From the NCBI GenBank assembly GCA_035529375.1, contig DATKWU010000018.1, positions 47,956-111,955 on the forward strand: 64,000 nucleotides of DNA, written 5' to 3'. Positions within the stretch are counted from its first letter, which is position 1, and each line of letters starts with the position of its first letter. Origin of the DNA: Patescibacteria group bacterium. GTDB lineage: Bacteria; Patescibacteriota; Microgenomatia; PFEM01; JAHIFH01. Below the pieces are notes generated by a model. That model searched no databases. It had not been told where the DNA came from and saw only the letters and a list, made by a program, of their open reading frames with translations. The position numbers were made by a program, and so were the translations under genes. Below are positions 26,159-35,214 of the stretch, in pieces.

Positions 26159-27832
26159 TCAATCAGTTTTAAACCAGACCTCCATTACTTCTTTGACAAT
26201 CGGCGCGGCCACATAAGAACCCTCGCCTCCAGCTTCTACTAGAGCGGTAACGACAATTTCTGGATCATCCACCGGCGCAAAAGCGGTTAACCAAGCATGA
26301 GTTCTGTCTTCAGGATCGCCAAATTCAGCCGTTCCGGTTTTACAGCCTACTTGAGGACTAAAATCAAAGAAAGGAAAAGCGGTCCCTTCAGGCGAACAAG
26401 CTTCTTTCATTCCCTCTTTGATTAATTTCAAAGTTTCCGGTTTTAGTTTTAAATCCACACATTCAGCAGTCTGATCTCCTTGTTTGATTTTGGGTGAACA
26501 AAGCTTGCCATTATTGGCAATGACACTGGTCATCATATTAACCTGCAGAGGTGTTGTTAACAGGTCTGCCTGACCAATGGCAAAATGATAAGTATTGCCT
26601 AAAAACCATTTTTCGCCAATGGTTTTTTCTTTCCATTCTGGTGTCGGCACTAAACCCTTAACCTCTCCTTTCAAATCAATTCTCGTTTCCCGACCCAAAC
26701 CAAACGCCTTACCCCACTCTGCTAATTTATTGGCCCCTACCCACTCGCCAATTTTGTAAAAGAAAGTGTCGGTTGAACGTTTAATCGCCCTGACTAAATT
26801 AATTTCTCCTTCGGTTCGACCGTATTGAGTGTAATACCAATTCTTGTAAATGTAATCACCAATCTGAATAAAACCTTGGTCTTCATAAACAGTTCCTTCA
26901 TCAACTTTACCCTCCTCAATCCCCGCCGCTACCGTCACAATTTTAAAGGTTGATCCAGGTGGATAAGCCCCACTAATGGCCCGATTAAACATGGGTTTTG
27001 ACTCATTAATTAAATCTTCAGACTTAATCTGATTAGGATCAAAGGAAGGCGAAGAAATGAGTACAATAACTTGGCCGGTTTTAACTTCAGTAACCACCAC
27101 GACCCCTGGTCTGCCTTTTAAGGCCTGGTAAGCTACTTTTGAGAGCTGGGCATCAAGGGAAAGATGAAGATCTTGACCTGGCAGAGATTCTGTCCGACCA
27201 ATTTCCCGAACCCGATTCCCGGCCGTGTCCACTTCATAGATAACACCACCATCCTGACCCCGTAGAATCTTCTCATACTCTTCCTCAATTCCGGTCCGAC
27301 CCACCAAATCACCTAATTGCCATTGATTTTTTCTGACTTCCTCTTCACTCGCCTCGCCTAAGTAACCTAAGACATGGGCCAGAGCCTGACCATAAAGATA
27401 ATCTCGACCGACATCTAAACGCAAATCTGCTTCCTTTTTCCCACCAGCCACCTCAATCCTCAAAGCTTCCTCACGACTAATTTCCTCAAAGCAATCCCCT
27501 TCTTCCAAATCACAATTTTCTTTTTTCAATCGGTAAACCGGTTTGTTTTTAATTAAAGGCTTTCCCTGACGATCATAAATCATTCCCCTGGGCGCCGGAA
27601 TGATTTCTTTTTTAATCCGATTCTCCTCAGCTAAAAGCCTATTTCTGGCGCCAAGAATAATCTGCAATTCAAAAAGACGACCAATTAACAATAAAAAACA
27701 AATAATTAAAAAACCATAGAAAAAATAGATTCTGCCTAAAGAAAACCTATTACCTTGTCTATTTTCTATATCTGATTCTGTCAGAAAAGAAGAATCAGGT
27801 TTAGCGGTGATATCTGTAGAAAGTTTCCTCAT
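26159..27832 (-). CDS. mrdA: Peptidoglycan D,D-transpeptidase PBP2
   Basis: STFK active-site motif (PPGSTFKIV), dimerisation and transpeptidase domains. Follows mreCD. Confidence 0.85.
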   Translation of the reverse strand: MRKLSTDITAKPDSSFLTESDIENRQGNRFSLGRIYFFYGFLIICFLLLIGRLFELQIILGARNRLLAEENRIKKEIIPAPRGMIYDRQGKPLIKNKPVYRLKKENCDLEEGDCFEEISREEALRIEVAGGKKEADLRLDVGRDYLYGQALAHVLGYLGEASEEEVRKNQWQLGDLVGRTGIEEEYEKILRGQDGGVIYEVDTAGNRVREIGRTESLPGQDLHLSLDAQLSKVAYQALKGRPGVVVVTEVKTGQVIVLISSPSFDPNQIKSEDLINESKPMFNRAISGAYPPGSTFKIVTVAAGIEEGKVDEGTVYEDQGFIQIGDYIYKNWYYTQYGRTEGEINLVRAIKRSTDTFFYKIGEWVGANKLAEWGKAFGLGRETRIDLKGEVKGLVPTPEWKEKTIGEKWFLGNTYHFAIGQADLLTTPLQVNMMTSVIANNGKLCSPKIKQGDQTAECVDLKLKPETLKLIKEGMKEACSPEGTAFPFFDFSPQVGCKTGTAEFGDPEDRTHAWLTAFAPVDDPEIVVTALVEAGGEGSYVAAPIVKEVMEVWFKTD

Positions 27833-28260
27833 TGAAGTCTAAGTTGCTTGCGATCAATCCGACCAACCAAAAAGACTAAAAGATATCTGGCTCCTAAAGC
27901 CACCAAAGCCAAGATTAAACTCTCAAACCAGAACCAATAATGAGAGAAAATAAACCTATAAACCAAAGAACTAAAGAAAACAAAAACCGGTAAAAATAAA
28001 GGATAGAGTGAATCAAAACGCCGTGAATAAAGGGAAAGAAGAAAAACAACTACCAGGAAAATTAAACTCGAAAGACCAAGAGGCATACCCTTAGCCAAAT
28101 CAAGTAACAAACCTGAAAAAAAAGCCACCAGAAAAACTTCTTTAGTTGGCCGAAAGATTGCCCAAGCAAGAACTAAAAGCAAAACCAAATTAAGCCTTAA
28201 AAAAGCACCCTGTAAAATAGCTAAGAAAAAAACCAGAATTAGAATTAAATAGGGCTTCAT
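27829..28260 (-). CDS. mreD: Rod shape-determining protein MreD (polytopic membrane protein)
   Basis: 143-aa multi-TM protein placed between mreC and mrdA with 4-nt overlaps. Confidence 0.55.
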   Translation of the reverse strand: MKPYLILILVFFLAILQGAFLRLNLVLLLVLAWAIFRPTKEVFLVAFFSGLLLDLAKGMPLGLSSLIFLVVVFLLSLYSRRFDSLYPLFLPVFVFFSSLVYRFIFSHYWFWFESLILALVALGARYLLVFLVGRIDRKQLRLQ

Positions 28261-29054
28261 GGTATGACCAAGAAAACAAACCTTAATGACGAATAATCAA
28301 GTAAAGGAGAAACTACGGCCTGCTGATAAATCTCGGCTGTGCCTTTGTTCACTTCCTTGATCTGACCAATGACTAAATCAGGCAAGTAGCCTTCTTCGCC
28401 AGAAGTGACTATCAAATCACCTTGACGAATATCTTCTTCTTGTAAAACCCGTTCCAAAACCAATTGACCCCCAAATTTACCAATCAATAAACCTCGGGCT
28501 TGAAAACCAGTGGCCCCAGGTTGTTTAATCACCACCGGTATTCTTGAATTAGGGTCAGTGGGTAACTGGACCAAACTTTCTCTTTCATTAACCATAACCA
28601 CTCGACCCACATAAATATTTTCTGAAACTAGATTCATGCCTACCTCAACCTCCTTACTCCTCCCTAAATCAATCTTCAGTTGTTCAGTCAAACCAATCAC
28701 CCTAACCATTTTAAACTGCCAAGCTGAAGGTAAAGATGTTCCCAAAAGTTTTTTCAAGTATTCGTTTTCCTCAAGGCAAGTAGTTAATTTATTTTGATCA
28801 AGAGCCAATTGACGCAATTCAACCTGAAGTTCAGCAATCTGCTGACTTTCATTTCGATCAGCCAATTGATTAAAAGACTGATTAACAGATTGATAGACTG
28901 AATAAAAAGGACGTTCAATAAACAAAAAAGGTCTTTCGAAAAAACCTGTCACTCCGGTTAGCCAACCAAAATAATCAAACAAAAAGAAAAAAATAGAGAT
29001 AAAAACTAGAAGTAAAAAGAAAGGAAAAATTTTCCTTAAAGAATCGTTACTCAT
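28257..29054 (-). CDS. mreC: Rod shape-determining protein MreC
   Basis: TM, coiled-coil and C-terminal beta domain (GDLIVTSGEEGYLPDLVIGQI). Confidence 0.7.
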   Translation of the reverse strand: MSNDSLRKIFPFFLLLVFISIFFFLFDYFGWLTGVTGFFERPFLFIERPFYSVYQSVNQSFNQLADRNESQQIAELQVELRQLALDQNKLTTCLEENEYLKKLLGTSLPSAWQFKMVRVIGLTEQLKIDLGRSKEVEVGMNLVSENIYVGRVVMVNERESLVQLPTDPNSRIPVVIKQPGATGFQARGLLIGKFGGQLVLERVLQEEDIRQGDLIVTSGEEGYLPDLVIGQIKEVNKGTAEIYQQAVVSPLLDYSSLRFVFLVIP

Positions 29055-29197: not shown

Positions 29198-31543
29198 CTA
29201 AGGGGGTATTTCCTGCCAAGTGTAAGAAGGGGTAAAGAGCACTGAAGGAGCAGTCATCAAAAAGTCTGGTCGGTAAACAAATTTCTCTGCTGGTCTTGTT
29301 CTGTTCAAATCCTCTCCTAAATCTCTTGCCAACTCAAAAGACTGAGCCACAAAAACTCCTTCACCCACAAACTGAACATCGTTGCCTTCACCAACTTTAT
29401 CAACCTCAAACTCTTTATCAGTAATAAAGACTCCTTCCACTTGAGTTACTGTTTCCGCTACCTTGATTTTTCCTGAGGCAATAATGGCTAAAAAGCCATT
29501 AACATCAAGATTACTATCAATATTCACCTCATTATCAACTAAGATAACAATTTTTGTTCCCTCAGGAATACTCCAACCATCAACCGTTAAAGCATCAGCA
29601 GTGTAGTAAACTCCAGAATCAGATGGTAAACCACCACCGTAATCTTCTTCAGGTGAACCCAAAAGTTCATAAAAGTAATTGAATCTCTTCCGAGAAAATT
29701 CTGTATTGGCTAACCAGCCTTCCACAGAGACGTTCCCTTCCCCCCAAGGATTATCTCCCAAAGTTTCTTTATGAGAAACCACGCCTGGAGTGCCTCCCTC
29801 ACCCGCTAAACAAAAATTATCATCCTCTCCAGGTAAATCAGAATTAATACTCTCTTGAGAATGAACATCACCTTCTTGAGCCTGAAACCAAGACCCAGCC
29901 GCCTTAGTCAAACCAATATTGATTGTCTTAGTTTCTCCTCCCTCAGTTAACATCACTTGATTAGTCTCATCACCCTCATCATCACAATAAATCGGATCAG
30001 AATACTCTCCAGGAAAAGCAGTCATCATCACTGTATGCAATTGATCTATAGGTACCTCAAAGGAATAATCAGGATCAGGAGTATCTGTACCATAACCGGC
30101 AATTTGAACGGTACCCCCAGAAACGGTTTCCCCTAATTCAGAACAGGAAGATCCTTCAAAAACCGTCCCCTGAATAGTTCCAGTTGGAGCAGGATAAAGA
30201 ATTGAATCGGCACAATAACTCCATTCAGCTGTTTTAAACTTAACTCTTGCCATTACCGAATTTTCGCCAGGATTAAGCGTTAAAGGATAACTGAAATTTC
30301 CACCCTCAGGAATATCCATAACTGACCCCCAGGTAGATCCACTATCAATACTTAATTGAATTTTGCCATCTTCAACCGCTCGAAAGTGCCATATTCCCAC
30401 TTTATGGGTATACATCGCATCATCTACGTAATAAACAAGAGAATTATTAATAACTTCAGCTTCTGCTTCATGGACGTCATCTGTTTTTAGTAAATTAAGC
30501 TCCATATCATAGAGCTCAAAACTATTAACATTACAATCATTTTCAGGATTTTCTTTTTCAGATATCTGGGAGTAAACAAAGAAATATTTCGTTCCTCTAT
30601 CCATCTGAATTGTTCGCTTCCCTGAACTGGTGTAACTAGCGATGATTGCATTTGCCCTTAAGCCATCACTAAGATGCCAACGCATTCCTCGGGAAAAATT
30701 AAGACTACCGTGGCAACCTGTCTTGTTACACATCCTAAAATCAACACTGAAAGTAAAAGATTTGATCACATAACCAGTTGGAGCAGTAACCTTAAGAGCA
30801 GCTCCACACGGTTGTTCGCCGTCACATATTATGTGCTCAGTAAATCTTAACCGACTGTCTCCCGCAAGGTGTCCAAATTTTCCAGGACCACAAGTTAACT
30901 CACAATCATAGCAGGCGTGACTAGAAGGAGCACAAGTAGTTCCAAAAGCAGGATAACAACCGCGACAGGGTTGACCGGCACTTATACAACTCCTTCTTTT
31001 ATACAAACAGCCATTAATTACTTGACCAAACCGGCAAACTTGGTCACCACCTCCTTCTGTGTAGCCATTACCACCCGGTCCAATACCGTAATACTGAAAA
31101 AGATTCCTGAAAGCGTTACCATGATTACCAACATTCCATGTTTCAAGATAGCCCTCATCCCTTAATTGATTGTCACTCTTGCCCTGAATTCGAGGAGCTA
31201 CTTCAATAAAACAGACAGCGTCTCTTTCAGACCCTTTATTATGTACGGCAAAATCATTGGCGAAAAAGGTTTCTTCACCATCAACCGAAAGATTGTAAAC
31301 TTCAACCGGCTCTTGTTTGTATTCAAGTTTAGTGATTTGCTCAGGCACCAAACCCTCTTCTCCCTTAACAAAAACCACATCGCCAATATTTAATTCCTTA
31401 ACCTGAATAAATCCAGCCTCTTTAATCTCCGGTCCAGGAATTTCCACCACCTCTTGCGCATGAATGGTTTTAGAGAAGACGAAGAATAAACTAATTCCTA
31501 ATATCCAATATCCAATATCTCTAACCGAGAGCAGTTTTTTCAT
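29198..31543 (-). CDS. Large secreted Cys-rich protein beginning with a Hint C-terminal (blocks F/G) segment
   Basis: Hydrophobic N-terminus, then GFIQVKELNIGDVVFVKG...VYNLSVDGEETFFANDFAVHN, then ~680 aa of Cys-rich extracellular sequence. Confidence 0.6.
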   Translation of the reverse strand: MKKLLSVRDIGYWILGISLFFVFSKTIHAQEVVEIPGPEIKEAGFIQVKELNIGDVVFVKGEEGLVPEQITKLEYKQEPVEVYNLSVDGEETFFANDFAVHNKGSERDAVCFIEVAPRIQGKSDNQLRDEGYLETWNVGNHGNAFRNLFQYYGIGPGGNGYTEGGGDQVCRFGQVINGCLYKRRSCISAGQPCRGCYPAFGTTCAPSSHACYDCELTCGPGKFGHLAGDSRLRFTEHIICDGEQPCGAALKVTAPTGYVIKSFTFSVDFRMCNKTGCHGSLNFSRGMRWHLSDGLRANAIIASYTSSGKRTIQMDRGTKYFFVYSQISEKENPENDCNVNSFELYDMELNLLKTDDVHEAEAEVINNSLVYYVDDAMYTHKVGIWHFRAVEDGKIQLSIDSGSTWGSVMDIPEGGNFSYPLTLNPGENSVMARVKFKTAEWSYCADSILYPAPTGTIQGTVFEGSSCSELGETVSGGTVQIAGYGTDTPDPDYSFEVPIDQLHTVMMTAFPGEYSDPIYCDDEGDETNQVMLTEGGETKTINIGLTKAAGSWFQAQEGDVHSQESINSDLPGEDDNFCLAGEGGTPGVVSHKETLGDNPWGEGNVSVEGWLANTEFSRKRFNYFYELLGSPEEDYGGGLPSDSGVYYTADALTVDGWSIPEGTKIVILVDNEVNIDSNLDVNGFLAIIASGKIKVAETVTQVEGVFITDKEFEVDKVGEGNDVQFVGEGVFVAQSFELARDLGEDLNRTRPAEKFVYRPDFLMTAPSVLFTPSYTWQEIPP

Positions 31544-31544
31544 C

Positions 31545-32168
31545 TTATTTTAATATTTCACTTACCTTCGCCTGTAAACCAGTAATCAACCGATAAGTCA
31601 GCGTATTTGAAAGAATATCTTTAAATTTATCAAGTGTTGTTTGGAGTTTGGTGCTTGAAGCTTGGTTATTCTCGCCTTTAATGGCGAGGAATGGGTGTTC
31701 TCCCGTCACCTTCACCTTCTTCCCACTTTCAGTTTCCAGCCCATAGTAGCCTTCCCGAATTGTTTTAGTCACATTAGAAACCGTGCCTTCTTTTATTTCC
31801 CCTGTCTCCGGATTAAACGAAGAAACAATCTCACCCGGTTTCAAGTCTTTAATTTGCTTCGTCTCCCCCTTCTGCTCTCCTGCTCTTTCACCCTCCTGTC
31901 CTAAATTAATCTCCGTTTCCCCAGTAAAACAAGGAGCACCACATGAAGAACAGGGGCAACAATATCCATCGGACATTTCGCAACCAACACACAAACAGTC
32001 ACTCCAGGAACAACCATCCCCCATTTGACCCACCTCAATAATGCAACGTCCACATTCACAAGAAATGCGTCCAGTTGAAGTACAAACATCCCCATAAACA
32101 CTTTTTGCCGTAAACATTAGGACACAAACGGTGAATAGCAAAACTAAAATTAAAGTCTTAGTTCTCAT
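31545..32168 (-). CDS. Secreted Cys-rich protein ending in a Hint N-terminal (blocks A/B) segment
   Basis: Signal peptide, ~50-aa Cys-rich module, then CFTGETEI...TGEHPF running to the C-terminus. The stop TAA is followed by G and then the ATG of the next gene. Confidence 0.6.
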   Translation of the reverse strand: MRTKTLILVLLFTVCVLMFTAKSVYGDVCTSTGRISCECGRCIIEVGQMGDGCSWSDCLCVGCEMSDGYCCPCSSCGAPCFTGETEINLGQEGERAGEQKGETKQIKDLKPGEIVSSFNPETGEIKEGTVSNVTKTIREGYYGLETESGKKVKVTGEHPFLAIKGENNQASSTKLQTTLDKFKDILSNTLTYRLITGLQAKVSEILK

Positions 32169-32175
32169 AGCAAAA

Positions 32176-32769
32176 TTACTTTCTTAAAAAACTTAAAAGT
32201 GATAAAAATTCCCCCGTGATTATTCCTGTCTCTCCTAAATTAATTTTATTTACAACAACAAAGTCACCAATATTGATTAACAGGTTTAAATTGTCAACTT
32301 GGAGTCGATGAGAGTCTATAATGATCCCTTTTTCTCGGAGTTCTTTGTCTATAATTTCTTTGCTTTTTGTTATGCTTCTCTCTTCATTCTTACTTAGATT
32401 TAAACCCACTTTATCATCGGAAGTGCTCTTTGGCTCTCTAGTAATATCTGCATATTCAAAATCTTTGTTAATTTCTATTGTAACCTCCTGCCTATTATTT
32501 TCAATTGTCAAAAACCAACCATCAATCTTCGTCACCCAACCCCTGATGGCGATTGGTTCTTTAGTTTCTTTATCGTACAAAAACACTCCCTCTTGGTAAA
32601 CAACTTCAGTATTGATATATTTTGATTCCTCGGCTGTCTTTCTTAAAGTCCAAAGATAATAAAAACCTTCAGCAACTATAATCAAAATTAAAATGAATAA
32701 GATTGGAAGTAAAACCTTAAGTAAACGAGGCAACCCTAATATTTTTTCTCTAATGGCAGGCAGCTGCAT
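32176..32769 (-). CDS. Hypothetical membrane-anchored protein
   Basis: 197 aa with an N-terminal TM helix. Confidence 0.35.
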   Translation of the reverse strand: MQLPAIREKILGLPRLLKVLLPILFILILIIVAEGFYYLWTLRKTAEESKYINTEVVYQEGVFLYDKETKEPIAIRGWVTKIDGWFLTIENNRQEVTIEINKDFEYADITREPKSTSDDKVGLNLSKNEERSITKSKEIIDKELREKGIIIDSHRLQVDNLNLLINIGDFVVVNKINLGETGIITGEFLSLLSFLRK

Positions 32770-32838: not shown

Positions 32839-34353
32839 TCAATGATTATATCTCATGTATTCTCCTATAAATTGGGGCCAATATAAATCAACCATCGCCA
32901 TTATCTCATCTTGAGCTCTTTCATCAAATTGAAGTAACTGAGCACTAAAGAGTTCATCCCATGATAAATGATTCCCTCTTACTTCTTCGTAATCATCCGT
33001 CATAAGGCAAGAACCGCTAGCCATCGAGTTAAGCAACCCTTTAAATGCGTCTTTACCTCCCTCTTTCAGGACACCATAAACATAAACAACCGGAATGAGG
33101 CGAACCGAAGGCCCTTCTGGATAGAGAACTTCAAGCCCTTTCTCTCTCAATATTTTTAAAGCAAAATCCTCCACAGCCTCTTGGGTGGCATGAACAAATT
33201 TCGATTCTGGAGTTCTCGTCGCCCAATCAACACCTTCAATACCTGGGGCTCTTTGGGCTTGAGGGAAGGAGTGAATTGCTTCATGGATATATTGGACTAT
33301 GAAATCAGCTGCATATTTATTATAATCCGAAACTGGTTTTGCATAACTATCTCCAAATATCATGACGCTGTTTGGATAACCCAAGCCTGCCCCAACTGTA
33401 CTCCATCCAGGAAGAATCAACGAACTAAGAATTTCCTCTTCCTCCTCAGGTAGTTGAGGAATAACTCCATCACGAAACAAAGCAGGGTTAAGATTGTCTC
33501 TAAACATTTCATTGATAGACCTTGAGATTGGTATAATATCAGAAACCACCTGTTTCATAAATGGACTCCTGATTCGTTCTTCGTGGGAGGCTAATGATAG
33601 GTATAAACCCTCTTCTGTTGGAAAAGGAACCGAATCAATGATCTCCCCACCTCTTCTTTCTCCATTTAAATAGGCATAAATCCAGAAATCCCTAAAAGGC
33701 CCAGTTCCTGGTTCTATGTTGCCTTTTCCTCGATTGACTACCTCAAAGAAATTGATAACTCTCTCATTGAGTCTCGAATCTAGCTCGGGATCAATCCGGT
33801 CCACTAATCCTTTGGGGATAACAAATTCACCCGGCCCGGAAGTCAAAGAAATTCTACATATCGCGTTGATCTCGGGGGACAGGATCTCCGCTTCTCCCCC
33901 CACTCCCGCTCCTTCAGGATTGACAATATTTAGTTGACCACTTCTGATTTCATCCGCGGTAGGGGTGACGACATTTAAAACAACATTTTGTTCTTGATTG
34001 ATTGCTTTAATTGTTGCCTCAAACTCCCCCCCTTCTCTATCTTCTGGAGCAGGAAGAATTCTTGGAGTTGGGCCTGATTCGGAGGCTGAAGAAACACCAA
34101 TACTAGCCGCTCCCTTAATTTGAGCAGCCCCCAGGGCAGCAAGAACGAGACCCGTAGTAACTGCTTGACTTCTCGATATTCGCTTTCTGGGTTCTAATCC
34201 AGTTAACTGTTCCTCAGATCCCAACCCCTGCCTTCTTCTCTCCCTTTCCTCCCTAATTCCTCTACGACTGGCTACCTGACTCTCTCTTAGCGCTTGTTTA
34301 TATAATGGACCGCCGTTAAGCTCGTCGGTTTCTTTGCCCATGTTTTCTTCCAT
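32839..34353 (-). CDS. Membrane-anchored HExxH (putative zincin) protein
   Basis: HEAIH motif near the C-terminal third and a TM anchor around residue 70. The ORF track start at 34374 is a TTG. The ATG at 34353 (MEENMGKE) has a GGGAG SD. Confidence 0.5.
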   Translation of the reverse strand: MEENMGKETDELNGGPLYKQALRESQVASRRGIREERERRRQGLGSEEQLTGLEPRKRISRSQAVTTGLVLAALGAAQIKGAASIGVSSASESGPTPRILPAPEDREGGEFEATIKAINQEQNVVLNVVTPTADEIRSGQLNIVNPEGAGVGGEAEILSPEINAICRISLTSGPGEFVIPKGLVDRIDPELDSRLNERVINFFEVVNRGKGNIEPGTGPFRDFWIYAYLNGERRGGEIIDSVPFPTEEGLYLSLASHEERIRSPFMKQVVSDIIPISRSINEMFRDNLNPALFRDGVIPQLPEEEEEILSSLILPGWSTVGAGLGYPNSVMIFGDSYAKPVSDYNKYAADFIVQYIHEAIHSFPQAQRAPGIEGVDWATRTPESKFVHATQEAVEDFALKILREKGLEVLYPEGPSVRLIPVVYVYGVLKEGGKDAFKGLLNSMASGSCLMTDDYEEVRGNHLSWDELFSAQLLQFDERAQDEIMAMVDLYWPQFIGEYMRYNH

Positions 34354-34453
34354 CTTTCTAAAAATCTCCCGCAATTCGGAGGATGTTAAACTACTTCAAA
34401 ATTCCACGAAAAGATTCAATTTTGGTTTAAAAATCATTTGGGCAATTGAAATT

Positions 34454-34512: not shown

Positions 34513-35214
34513 TTACCTCAATGATTTTTTCTCTCGGAGAATATTATAGTCAATATATCTATTTGCAAATCCATCACAATATATTTCTTTGTCTTCATCT
34601 CCAATTTTGACTCCTTGCAACTTAAGCACCTCGTGGCCTAATTCATGGAGGAGAGTCCACTCTAATCTTTTTATACCAATTAGCTGATTGTATTTTGAAT
34701 AATCTCTTTTACCACTATTTTCCGGCTCTGCTAAAGATGCCGAAACACTTAGCCACCTGGTTTTACCCTCTCCGCTTTCAATCTCTCGAGCTATTCCCAA
34801 AGCAAATTTTCCTTCATTTCTACCACTTTTGATTGGGATTAAATCACGATAGAAGATAAACATTAACGGCATTAGTTCTCTGCAATCAACACCGCTATCT
34901 TCTAAAATTGCCTGTATTGTCTTATCATCAACTGTATAGTCTAGTCCAGGGTCCATACTGAATTCTTTAAAATCGCACAAACTCTCTGGGGTAGGAGGGG
35001 AAATTATTGATTCAGCGCGACCTGGACGGATAGACGACTTGGGGGACAAATTTTCCAAAACCCCATTTCGCTTTAGTAAATATGAGGCTCCTTTTATCAT
35101 CAAGATTCCAGTTGCTGCAGTTCCAACTATTAGAAATTCTCTCCTAGTCAATGGTCTTCTTCTTTTTTCTTGGCGGATTGAAATTGACTCGTTTTTACCT
35201 TGTTCAATTACCAT
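34513..35214 (-). CDS. Tat-signal secreted HExxH (zincin-like) protein
   Basis: Twin-arginine motif (TRREFLIVGTAATGILM) and HELGHE near the C-terminus. GGAGGA SD 10 nt upstream. Confidence 0.55.
   Translation of the reverse strand: MVIEQGKNESISIRQEKRRRPLTRREFLIVGTAATGILMIKGASYLLKRNGVLENLSPKSSIRPGRAESIISPPTPESLCDFKEFSMDPGLDYTVDDKTIQAILEDSGVDCRELMPLMFIFYRDLIPIKSGRNEGKFALGIAREIESGEGKTRWLSVSASLAEPENSGKRDYSKYNQLIGIKRLEWTLLHELGHEVLKLQGVKIGDEDKEIYCDGFANRYIDYNILREKKSLR

Follow-up and report, generated by a model that had tools for sequence, protein, structure and literature searches.

To our knowledge, all split Hint domains reported from nature are inteins of cytoplasmic enzymes of DNA metabolism. 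These inteins require a Cys, Ser or Thr where the exteins are joined. Bacterial intein-like (BIL) domains have so far been split only in the laboratory. In natural split inteins, such as those of cyanobacterial DnaE and the metagenomic gp41-1, NrdJ-1 and IMPDH-1, the N half lies at the C-terminus of one protein and the C half at the N-terminus of a second. Charge complementarity drives the association of the DnaE and gp41-1 split-intein fragments. Type-A BILs (Amitai 2003; Dassa 2004) are defined by a terminal HN followed by a non-nucleophilic +1 residue (PMC4031507) and by their hypervariable, typically secreted context (PMC7765530). They can splice by aminolysis without a +1 nucleophile, and when they are expressed in E. 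coli cleavage products outweigh spliced ones (PMC4031507). In Tetrahymena, BIL2 forms a Lys isopeptide, with ATP-free joining of the C-terminus of the N-flank to a Lys amine (PMC8616854). An artificially split BIL is reported to trans-splice (Aranko 2013, as cited in PMC4031507).

Two adjacent genes, A and B, from an uncultured Patescibacteria bacterium (GCA_035529375.1, contig DATKWU010000018.1) are described here; they lie within the 64,000 nt stretch that was analysed, referred to as the window. The pair fits a split type-A BIL and does not fit a canonical split intein. With type-A BILs it shares the Hint fold, Cys1, the block B TxxH, the C-terminal His-Asn and a +1 residue other than Cys, Ser or Thr (VHN/K), as well as a location in hypervariable regions of non-conserved secreted bacterial proteins, where the domain is more conserved than its flanks. 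It differs from them in being split into two cistrons, in the signal peptide that each half has of its own, in the invariant Lys at +1 and in a split-specific tail on A. The order of the halves is that of the natural split inteins, as are the catalytic residues carried by both halves and the predicted disorder of the isolated C half. Unlike those inteins, the pair has no +1 nucleophile, both of its halves are acidic and exported, and the exteins are hypervariable surface proteins (17 % identity in the flanks against 62–75 % in Hint) rather than a conserved cytoplasmic enzyme, with no intein-free allele logic. The position of the split differs too: it coincides with the pseudo-twofold boundary, immediately behind block B, and leaves halves of 85 and 73 aa rather than approximately 100 and 36 aa.

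Our best explanation, which is put forward tentatively, is that A and B together specify a single Hint autoprocessing domain resembling a type-A BIL, with its coding sequence divided between two genes and its halves exported separately via Sec. Judging from the sequences, the halves probably form a functional, trans-acting split Hint. A conserved natural split domain of the BIL type would be new in the export of both halves, in the break at the pseudo-twofold axis and in the invariant Lys at the junction. The literature searched, of which coverage was partial, contained no account of a BIL or Hint domain of this kind that is split in nature, and none of Hint domains in CPR bacteria.

Two exported proteins with complementary Hint halves

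Both open reading frames reported in a preliminary description of this DNA are present on the minus strand, gene A at 31545..32168 (product of 207 aa) and gene B at 29198..31543 (781 aa); their features are listed in Table 1. The A protein matches the profile TIGR01445 (intein_Nterm) at 35.8 bits (cut-off 24.5) over residues 80-161, and also the N-terminal parts of Pfam Intein_splicing, Hint and Vint. The B protein matches TIGR01443 (intein_Cterm) at 20.1 bits (cut-off 15.6) over residues 81-102, and also the C-terminal parts of PT-HINT (profile positions 71-130) and Intein_splicing. When the halves were joined in silico, as A(80-167) + B(42-108), the score against Intein_splicing (PF14890) was 58.4 bits (GA 35.8), and PT-HINT (PF07591) gave a single match of 36.0 bits (GA 27.7) that spans the join and covers profile positions 9-130 of 137; the match to Pfam Hint (PF01079) ends at profile position 135 of 213. 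These matches, significant for each half separately and for the two joined, together with the signal peptides support the earlier proposal of adjacent exported proteins carrying complementary Hint halves in an IntN/IntC-like layout. Motifs and profiles place A and B in the Hint superfamily. The two halves are complementary, and the catalytic residues Cys80, Thr155/His158 and His101-Asn102 are all retained.

Table 1. Features of genes A and B and of the adjoining gene, in window coordinates
Feature	Position	Strand	Basis or remark
Upstream 197-aa protein, N-terminally anchored	32176..32769	-	
Gene A signal peptide, residues 1-26 (MRTK + hydrophobic core + VYG/D cleavage)	32091..32168	-	Read from sequence
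Gene A hypervariable Cys-rich N-extein, residues 27-79, 12 Cys	31932..32090	-	
Gene A Hint N half, residues 80-164	31677..31931	-	TIGR01445 above cut-off
Gene A C-terminal region: linker of variable sequence (165-184), then the conserved amphipathic tail (185-207, ILSNTLTYRLITGLQAKVSEILK)	31548..31676	-	
A/B junction: stop TAA, spacer base G, gene B start ATG	31541..31547	-	AAA-TAA-G-ATG read
Gene B signal peptide, residues 1-29 (MKKL + hydrophobic core + IHA/QE)	31457..31543	-	Sequence comparison
Gene B Hint C half, residues 30-102: strands after block B and blocks F/G, ending FANDFAVH101-N102	31238..31456	-	
Lys103, +1 residue after His-Asn	31235..31237	-	Invariant in 12/12 full-length homologues
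Gene B C-extein, residues 104-781: Cys-rich hypervariable start, beta-sandwich middle, conserved C-terminal domain, beta-helix-like (~546-781)	29201..31234	-	

Export signals had been noted on both halves, and signal peptides are predicted in A as well as in B. By alignment, all aligned A homologues have n-, h- and c-regions with an A-x-A-like site. In B, the signal-peptidase site V/I-x-A/Q-E is kept in the 11 split-type homologues listed, and the hydrophobic start of the protein is best read as a cleavable signal peptide; some diverged B-type proteins have an apparent uncleaved signal anchor in its place.

The A protein was previously described as a signal peptide, a Cys-rich module and Hint blocks A and B running to the C-terminus. 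This layout holds except at its end, where the Hint half stops at approximately residue 164 and is followed by a linker and a conserved tail (40 aa). Block A reads C80-F81-TGETEI and block B T155-G-E-H158-P-F. The tail, slightly basic by computed charge, is better conserved than the linker (identity 0.47 versus 0.18). It is missing in the compact contiguous relatives P0117 and P0127. Of the fused proteins, P0052 and P0097 retain part of it, and in P0052 the corresponding stretch is modelled as a low-confidence helix.

On the Intein_splicing profile (PF14890), the split point lies at positions ~78-83, compared with ~101-125 for Npu DnaE. This earlier split accounts for the longer-than-usual IntC-like part that had been pointed out. 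Compared with each other, the two Hint halves gave an E-value of 2.8e-5 in a profile–profile comparison and 0.07, not significant, in pairwise BLAST. When A, B and fused proteins are aligned together, MAFFT superposes the two halves on each other.

From Lys103 onwards, mean identity among B homologues rises from 0.17 (residues 103-350) through 0.25 in the middle to 0.40 in the C-terminal part. An AF2 model of B alone has a mean pLDDT of 49 and is confident only for residues 620-750, and Foldseek searches with it returned weak, generic adhesin, CBM and Ig-like matches. The homologues have sub-threshold matches to DUF7305, CarboxypepD_reg and CBM_4_9, and one has a Big_7 match of 25.2 bits against a cut-off of 24.1. 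Profile and Foldseek searches with the C-extein (680 aa, adhesin-like) gave no toxin-domain match. In this the pair is unlike the PT-HINT of polymorphic toxins, as it also is in the gene that follows B, which is mreC rather than an immunity gene.

Conservation and contiguous relatives

A homology search recovered 49 A-type clusters of 123-227 aa, nearly all of 177-227 aa, and the 27 A-type sequences aligned all end at the same point. On the B side there are 12 full-length homologues, with more than 20 B-type representatives at 50 % clustering; a search with a fused Hint as the query added few new sequences. The A/B pair recurs in loci L001, L022, L025, L028, L030 (two cassettes) and L033; the split is kept in many genomes. 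In L030, the tandem cassettes are diverged and have the same break point.

Within the family, the Hint halves are the most conserved parts, with mean pairwise identities of 0.62 for the N half and 0.75 for the C half. The N-extein of A stands at 0.17, and its Cys count is 7-17 per homologue. The catalytic residues are invariant in sequences that are otherwise down to ~37 % identical. The invariant positions are C80, F81, T155, E157, H158 and P159 in the 27 aligned A homologues, and H101 and N102 in B. Both halves are under strong purifying selection. The residue preceding Cys1 is usually Gly (GGG/CF) in the A homologues and is Pro in the window (GAP/CF). It had been noted that Lys, and not Cys, Ser or Thr, follows the terminal HN of B; this Lys proves to be invariant in the full-length homologues (Table 1) and is also found in the further B-type representatives inspected and in diverged B-type, fused and tandem-Hint relatives.

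Fused orthologues occupy the same syntenic site as the split pair and do not have the internal signal peptide of gene B. The structure of one of these, P0052, was predicted from an alignment of fused and A rows only. The horseshoe-like, pseudo-twofold Hint fold is predicted for this contiguous orthologue, as distinct from the A+B complex: its Hint region is modelled at pLDDT 82-95 as a complete Hint fold. Foldseek aligned the model with DnaB mini-inteins (TM 0.88), Cth BIL 2LWY (0.87) and Hedgehog (0.82-0.84). The entry 2LWY is the structure of Cth BIL4, a type-A BIL. The phmmer match to it is weak (E 1e-3), and inteins score similarly. By E-value, the best Foldseek match of P0052 is BIL2 of Tetrahymena BUBL1 (6Y75/6TMM; sequence identity ~22 %), which also shows how an invariant Lys might serve as acceptor. 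Unlike the present pair, BIL2 is eukaryotic, cytoplasmic and contiguous, and has ubiquitin-like flanks. Modelled alone, the Hint C half of B is disordered (pLDDT 26-46), as expected for a fragment that requires a partner.

Other relatives vary the theme. P0082-84 consist of a Cys-rich peptide, Hint and a short hydrophobic C-terminal stub, with His-Asn and Lys+1 retained, and in tandem-Hint proteins the Lys+1 is invariant (HNKGGCF). It is likely that a single clade holds an evolutionary series, from compact contiguous forms to contiguous forms with an inserted tail, then to split forms and finally to split forms with selfish genes in the gap.

Ligation or cleavage

In the split-BIL explanation, the halves, once exported and stripped of their signal peptides, would dock with each other and restore the active site of Hint. 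Docking might be aided by the conserved tail of A, by the conserved mature N-terminus of B (QEVVEIPGPEIKEAGF in the window, QEAVEIPGPELKDASF in the family consensus) and by membrane tethering. Cys80 would then be linked as a thioester to the C-terminal end of the Cys-rich peptide, and cyclisation of Asn102 would release the large surface protein with Lys103 as its new N-terminus. The alpha or epsilon amine of Lys103 could take the Cys-rich peptide from the thioester, a step that has been suggested for type-A BILs and demonstrated for Tetrahymena BIL2. Overall, a hypervariable Cys-rich head would be trans-ligated onto a hypervariable surface protein, with simple hydrolysis as a side path. Since type-A BILs can ligate without a +1 nucleophile (PMC4031507, PMC8616854), a splicing-like ligation is possible despite the Lys. 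Ligation is perhaps the main outcome. The Lys is invariant in the tandem-Hint proteins too, and may therefore serve Asn cyclisation rather than act as acceptor.

Several observations speak against this explanation. Both Hint halves are strongly acidic, with a mean charge of -7 for the HintN core and -10.5 for HintC, so there is no charge complementarity between them. The -1 residue is not strictly Gly, and A is found without a nearby B in L002 and L024, where no B lies within 5 kb of A. In its favour, L024 has gene A alone and L034 carries the same solo A in frameshifted form, which is consistent with A depending on B.

It is also conceivable, if somewhat unlikely, that the split Hint assembles after export and only cleaves. 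The Cys-rich peptide would be released by hydrolysis or, as in Hedgehog, by transfer to another nucleophile, which might be water, a lipid or an amine of the cell wall, and the surface protein would be freed from its HintC propeptide, the products never being joined. The pair shares with Hedgehog/Hog-Hint proteins a secreted, N-terminal cargo followed by a G/CF junction and a thioester-forming Hint, and the G/CF of most homologues resembles the Hedgehog autoprocessing site, which is GCF. The lack of Cys, Ser or Thr at +1 points the same way, and P0082-84, with their hydrophobic stub, would fit peptide release from a membrane-held precursor. Cleavage is dominant for type-A BILs, and one review says that they cannot ligate (PMC4031507, PMC7765530). 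Against this, P0082-84 keep both the His-Asn and Lys+1, which would be needless for pure N-terminal release, and no sterol-recognition-like adduct region follows the Hint. Hedgehog is contiguous and eukaryotic, needs the sterol-recognition region and cholesterol, and has no His-Asn C-terminal cleavage, whereas the Hint of A and B ends in the invariant His-Asn with the C-extein directly after it. Cys-rich hypervariable flanks lie at both junctions, as if they were one module, and the best structural match by E-value, Tetrahymena BIL2, uses a Lys amine (PMC8616854).

A role of the halves chiefly in non-covalent docking ('dock and lock'), holding A on B while their chemistry is vestigial, is improbable. 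Both halves are highly conserved and complementary, and the A tail and the mature N-terminus of B are conserved and specific to split forms, as docking would have it, but Cys1, the Thr and His of block B and the His-Asn are all invariant and are not required for docking alone.

To return to the split BIL, its farthest-reaching form would be an extracellular, cofactor-free ligation in which the split Hint transfers a hypervariable Cys-rich peptide to the alpha or epsilon amine of the invariant Lys that opens the surface protein, without Cys, Ser or Thr. The cargo is much less conserved than the Hint halves, and there are tandem cassettes and solo A genes, so that different A and B proteins could cross-react; this would diversify the cell surface of an episymbiotic bacterium combinatorially and after translation. 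In this full form the proposal is unlikely. If the domain is active, Hint chemistry would be used in trans outside the cell, and the pair would allow a test of the old proposal that surface proteins are diversified by BILs. Orthogonal tools of the split-intein kind, which ligate onto Lys and work under oxidising, extracellular conditions, could also be developed from it.

Junctions, inserted genes and flanking genes

The frame relation between A and B varies across loci. In the window, B lies in the +1 frame relative to A, in an A-rich context and with a 1-nt spacer and no insert; the junction is TAA-A-ATG in L001, and elsewhere the two genes overlap by ATGA or are 5 nt apart. Five loci have toxin–antitoxin (TA) modules of at least three families (PIN, BrnT/BrnA and ParE-like) occupying 0.4-0.7 kb between A and B. 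The two genes are intact in L023, L026, L027 and L029, and gene A is truncated in L057. The presence of these modules between intact genes indicates that A and B are separate cistrons. In having split Hint halves in adjacent genes, with a selfish gene between the halves in some loci, the family resembles the 'fractured genes' (Dassa et al. 2009, PMC2677866). It differs from them in that the inserts are TA modules and not homing endonucleases, and the hosts are surface proteins of Patescibacteria and not DNA-metabolism enzymes of phage.

If ribosomes crossed TAA-G-ATG by a programmed +1 frameshift or by bypassing, A and B would be made as a single chain, giving a contiguous Hint with an internal hydrophobic loop. 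The position of B one base after the stop in the +1 frame, the A-rich context and the existence of fused natural versions agree with this. It is nevertheless very improbable and is rejected, given the differing frame relations and the TA genes that part A from B; in addition, every B homologue opens with a Met-Lys-Lys signal peptide of the usual kind, which the fused forms do not have.

An assembly error or a recent fission pseudogene, suggested by the unusual layout and the frameshifted A of L034, has a negligible chance of being correct: the former is ruled out by the exact A protein on nine contigs and the junction shared by two independent assemblies compared (L019 and L020), and recent or random gene fission, raised as an option in the preliminary description, is rejected because the break point is conserved in the 49 A clusters, the more than 20 B-type representatives and the tandem L030 cassettes, with purifying selection on both halves.

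A Pfam search with the 197-aa protein encoded upstream of gene A gave no match. A homologue of this protein is found directly upstream of A in L001, L023, L024, L026, L030, L032 and L016, and the protein accompanies A and B and is possibly a third component of their cassette.

A Hint domain divided between two genes

Genes A and B of the window meet at TAA-G-ATG and encode complementary halves of one Hint domain, as proposed in the preliminary description from sequence alone. In the profile searches suggested there, A scored 35.8 bits against NCBIfam intein_Nterm (cut-off 24.5) and B 20.1 bits against intein_Cterm (cut-off 15.6); in the Pfam matches, A covers only N-terminal profile positions and B only C-terminal ones. 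Joined in silico, A(80-167) + B(42-108) scored 58.4 bits against Intein_splicing (GA 35.8) and gave a single match across the join to PT-HINT (36.0 bits, GA 27.7). The identification rests on these separate and joined matches. Only one such pair was found by HMM scan of all window ORFs. The export signals previously noted on both halves were likewise found.

Features of the Hint cassette and related loci (identity, mean pairwise)
Feature	Location	Strand	Description	Identity
Gene A	window 31545..32168	-	207 aa	
A, signal peptide	residues 1-26			
A, Cys-rich N-extein	after signal peptide		53 aa, 12 Cys	0.17
A, Hint N half			C80-FTGETEI ... T155-GEH158-PF	0.62
A, linker			variable	0.18
A, C-terminal tail	residues 185-207		conserved, amphipathic	0.47
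Gene B	window 29198..31543	-	781 aa	
B, N-terminus			M-K-K-L, hydrophobic core, IHA|QE (signal-peptidase-type site)	
B, Hint C half	after IHA|QE		73 residues, ends FANDFAVH101-N102	0.75
B, C-extein	after Asn102		K103, then 678 further residues	0.17 (first 250 residues)
B, C-terminal domain				0.40
197-aa protein	window 32176..32769	-	N-terminal membrane anchor	
Two HExxH proteins	window 34513..35214 and 32839..34374	-	LLHELGHEV and IHEAIH	
mreC-mreD-PBP2	window 26159..29054	-		
mreC-mreD-PBP2	L001 9053-11867; L016 9654-12477			
Tandem cassettes	L030:4695-8032; L030:8653-10330			
A, no B within 5 kb	L024:2036-2650; L034:4986-5539			
TA genes between A and B	L023:5463-6115; L026:4235-4884; L027:1589-2238; L029:3866-4129; L057:1115-1622			
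MNT-like nucleotidyltransferase behind A	L037:1275-1628; L039:3086-3439		judged by eye only	

On the Intein_splicing profile, A stops at about 77 and mature B starts at about 83, compared with IntN to about 101 and IntC from about 123-126 in Npu DnaE. From these positions, the split is placed directly behind block B, between two pseudo-symmetric lobes and not in the endonuclease-insertion loop. This explains the IntC-like part of 73 aa, earlier remarked on as longer than usual. The two Hint halves are alike enough for MAFFT to superpose them, and hhalign between them gave E 2.8e-5.

The Hint domain is conserved above its flanks, the opposite of the pattern in inteins, where flanks are conserved above the intein. 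Invariant residues are Cys80, Phe81, Thr155, Glu157, His158, and Pro159 in A homologues and His101, Asn102, and Lys103 in B homologues. The C-extein appears to be a multi-domain surface protein that opens with a Cys-rich stretch, continues in beta-sandwich modules, and ends in a beta-helix-like domain modelled with confidence. Supporting profile matches are weak: most (DUF7305, CBM, CarboxypepD_reg) stay below threshold and one, to Big_7, is just over cut-off. The Foldseek matches, also weak, are adhesin-like.

Recurrence of the split

An assembly error, raised as a possibility in the preliminary description, is excluded: the exact A protein is present on nine contigs, and two independent assemblies (ENA, Logan) have identical junction sequence and identical 207 + 781 aa gene calls. 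Nor is this a one-off pseudogene from random fission, since the split recurs. A search among 5.8 billion proteins gave 49 A-type clusters (123-227 aa, nearly all 177-227), all 27 aligned A-type homologues end at one point behind a shared conserved tail, and all 12 full-length B homologues have a signal peptide, Hint C half, and HN-K. Additional B-type subfamilies came from exhaustive phmmer against 1.84 billion representatives; a few of these have an apparent uncleaved signal anchor in place of the usual start.

Using HMMs of the two halves, 85 related loci were sorted into classes. The search for the same architecture found A and B abutting, as in the window, in L001, L022, L025, L028, L030 (two tandem, diverged cassettes), and L033. 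Inserted genes part them in L023, L026, L027, L029, and L057; A lacks B within 1-5 kb in L002/L031, L021, L024, and L034; and the two are fused in L016-18, L035, and more distant loci. Five loci have the junction TAA-N-ATG, two have an ATGA overlap, and one has TAA + 5 nt + ATG; the A-to-B reading frame is therefore not fixed. This varying frame and the genes inserted between A and B exclude a conserved programmed frameshift.

The inserted genes are toxin-antitoxin (TA) modules above Pfam thresholds (MazE/AbrB + PIN, BrnT + CopG/BrnA, ParE-like). The MNT-like nucleotidyltransferase of L037 and L039, judged by eye, would be a fourth family. Selfish modules thus seem to have landed at this junction repeatedly. 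These loci echo the 'fractured genes' (Dassa et al., PMC2677866), in which the inserts are homing endonucleases rather than TA modules.

The cassette of small protein, A, and B is tandemly duplicated in L030 and L032. Divergence is strong in the second pair, whose B opens with KKKQKTKNRP and 22 hydrophobic residues, which looks like an uncleaved signal anchor instead of a cleavable signal peptide; such cassettes could be orthogonal split-Hint pairs within one genome. L024 and its sister contig L034 represent one lineage with A and its upstream partner; in L034 a frameshift interrupts A, consistent with decay after loss of B. The L001 and L002 MAGs, which carry close homologues and have locus content as in the window, are labelled 'uncultured Gammaproteobacteria'. 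The protein identical to that of the window is Patescibacteria group in NCBI, and these labels may be wrong.

Contiguous relatives

The fused protein P0052 (876 aa), on contigs from three samples, occupies the same syntenic site 5′ of mreC-mreD-PBP2 and has a single continuous Hint with a tail remnant and no internal signal peptide. P0097 resembles it, P0117, P0124, and P0127 are compact Hints without the tail, and P0082-84 consist of a Cys-rich peptide, Hint, and short hydrophobic C-terminal stub. HN-K ends the Hint in all of these, and these fused proteins clear the GA cut-off of Pfam Intein_splicing, Hint, or PT-HINT. The P0052 AF2 model has pLDDT 82-95 in both Hint lobes, with a low-confidence helix in the linker between them; in B modelled alone, the Hint half has 26-46. 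In Foldseek, the P0052 model gave its best E-value with Tetrahymena BIL2 (2.8e-11) and matched DnaB mini-inteins (TM 0.88, rmsd about 2 A), the Clostridium thermocellum BIL (0.87), gp41-1 (0.86), and Hedgehog (0.82-0.84).

Within the same Hint clade, P0062-P0077 and P0085-P0087 have three to six tandem Hints linked by HN-K-G-G-C-F, and a Tim44-like domain forms the C-terminus of some. The invariant Lys is therefore a clade-wide trait, not specific to the split form.

Proposed processing

The likeness to split inteins holds for the complementary halves in adjacent genes; however, the pair departs from canonical split inteins in the +1 nucleophile, extein conservation, split site, and charge complementarity. 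It resembles type-A bacterial intein-like domains (BILs) in HN, a +1 residue that is not a nucleophile, and a hypervariable secreted context, although here the domain is split. In the full-text literature searched, neither a natural split BIL or Hint nor a Hint domain in CPR bacteria was described.

The simplest reading of the sequences is that the exported halves would reassemble outside the membrane and the Hint would then process both junctions, because no residue needed for the thioester or for Asn cyclisation has been lost and A and B are each exported. The residue after HN is Lys, as first described, not Cys, Ser, or Thr, and this rules out the branched intermediate of class 1 inteins. 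The Cys-rich peptide might instead be passed to Lys103, a tentative proposal. Cleavage only, with products never joined, is rather unlikely, but cleavage did prevail over ligation for type-A BILs in E. coli (PMC4031507). Transfer is favoured over cleavage only because of three precedents: type-A BILs share the layout and can ligate through attack of the released amine on the thioester (PMC4031507), a BIL that was split artificially is able to trans-splice (Aranko 2013, as cited in PMC4031507), and Tetrahymena BIL2 formed a Lys isopeptide (PMC8616854). A Hedgehog-type domain is ruled out, since HN is kept and the adduct region is absent, as is a PT-HINT toxin, since there is neither toxin domain nor immunity gene.

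Both Hint halves are acidic (mean charge -7 and -10.5; the A tail alone is slightly basic), a point against easy association. Docking may be aided by the split-specific A tail, the conserved mature B N-terminus, and membrane tethering.

Genomic neighbourhood

Split or fused, the cassette always lies directly 5′ of mreC-mreD-PBP2 (a PBP2-type transpeptidase) on the same strand, pointing to joint expression with the machinery of cell-wall elongation. On its 5′ side in the window, the 197-aa protein, without Pfam match, lies directly upstream of A, as do homologues in L001, L016, L023, L024, L026, L030, and L032, and in tandem cassettes it precedes every copy; it could serve as a third component, e.g. 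a chaperone or assembly factor. The two HExxH proteins further upstream are possible exported metalloproteases with a link to the cassette. A twin-arginine-like signal (LTRREFLIVG; weak Pfam TAT-signal match) is present in the 233-aa protein, whose L001 homologue has TRRRFLK and HELCH.
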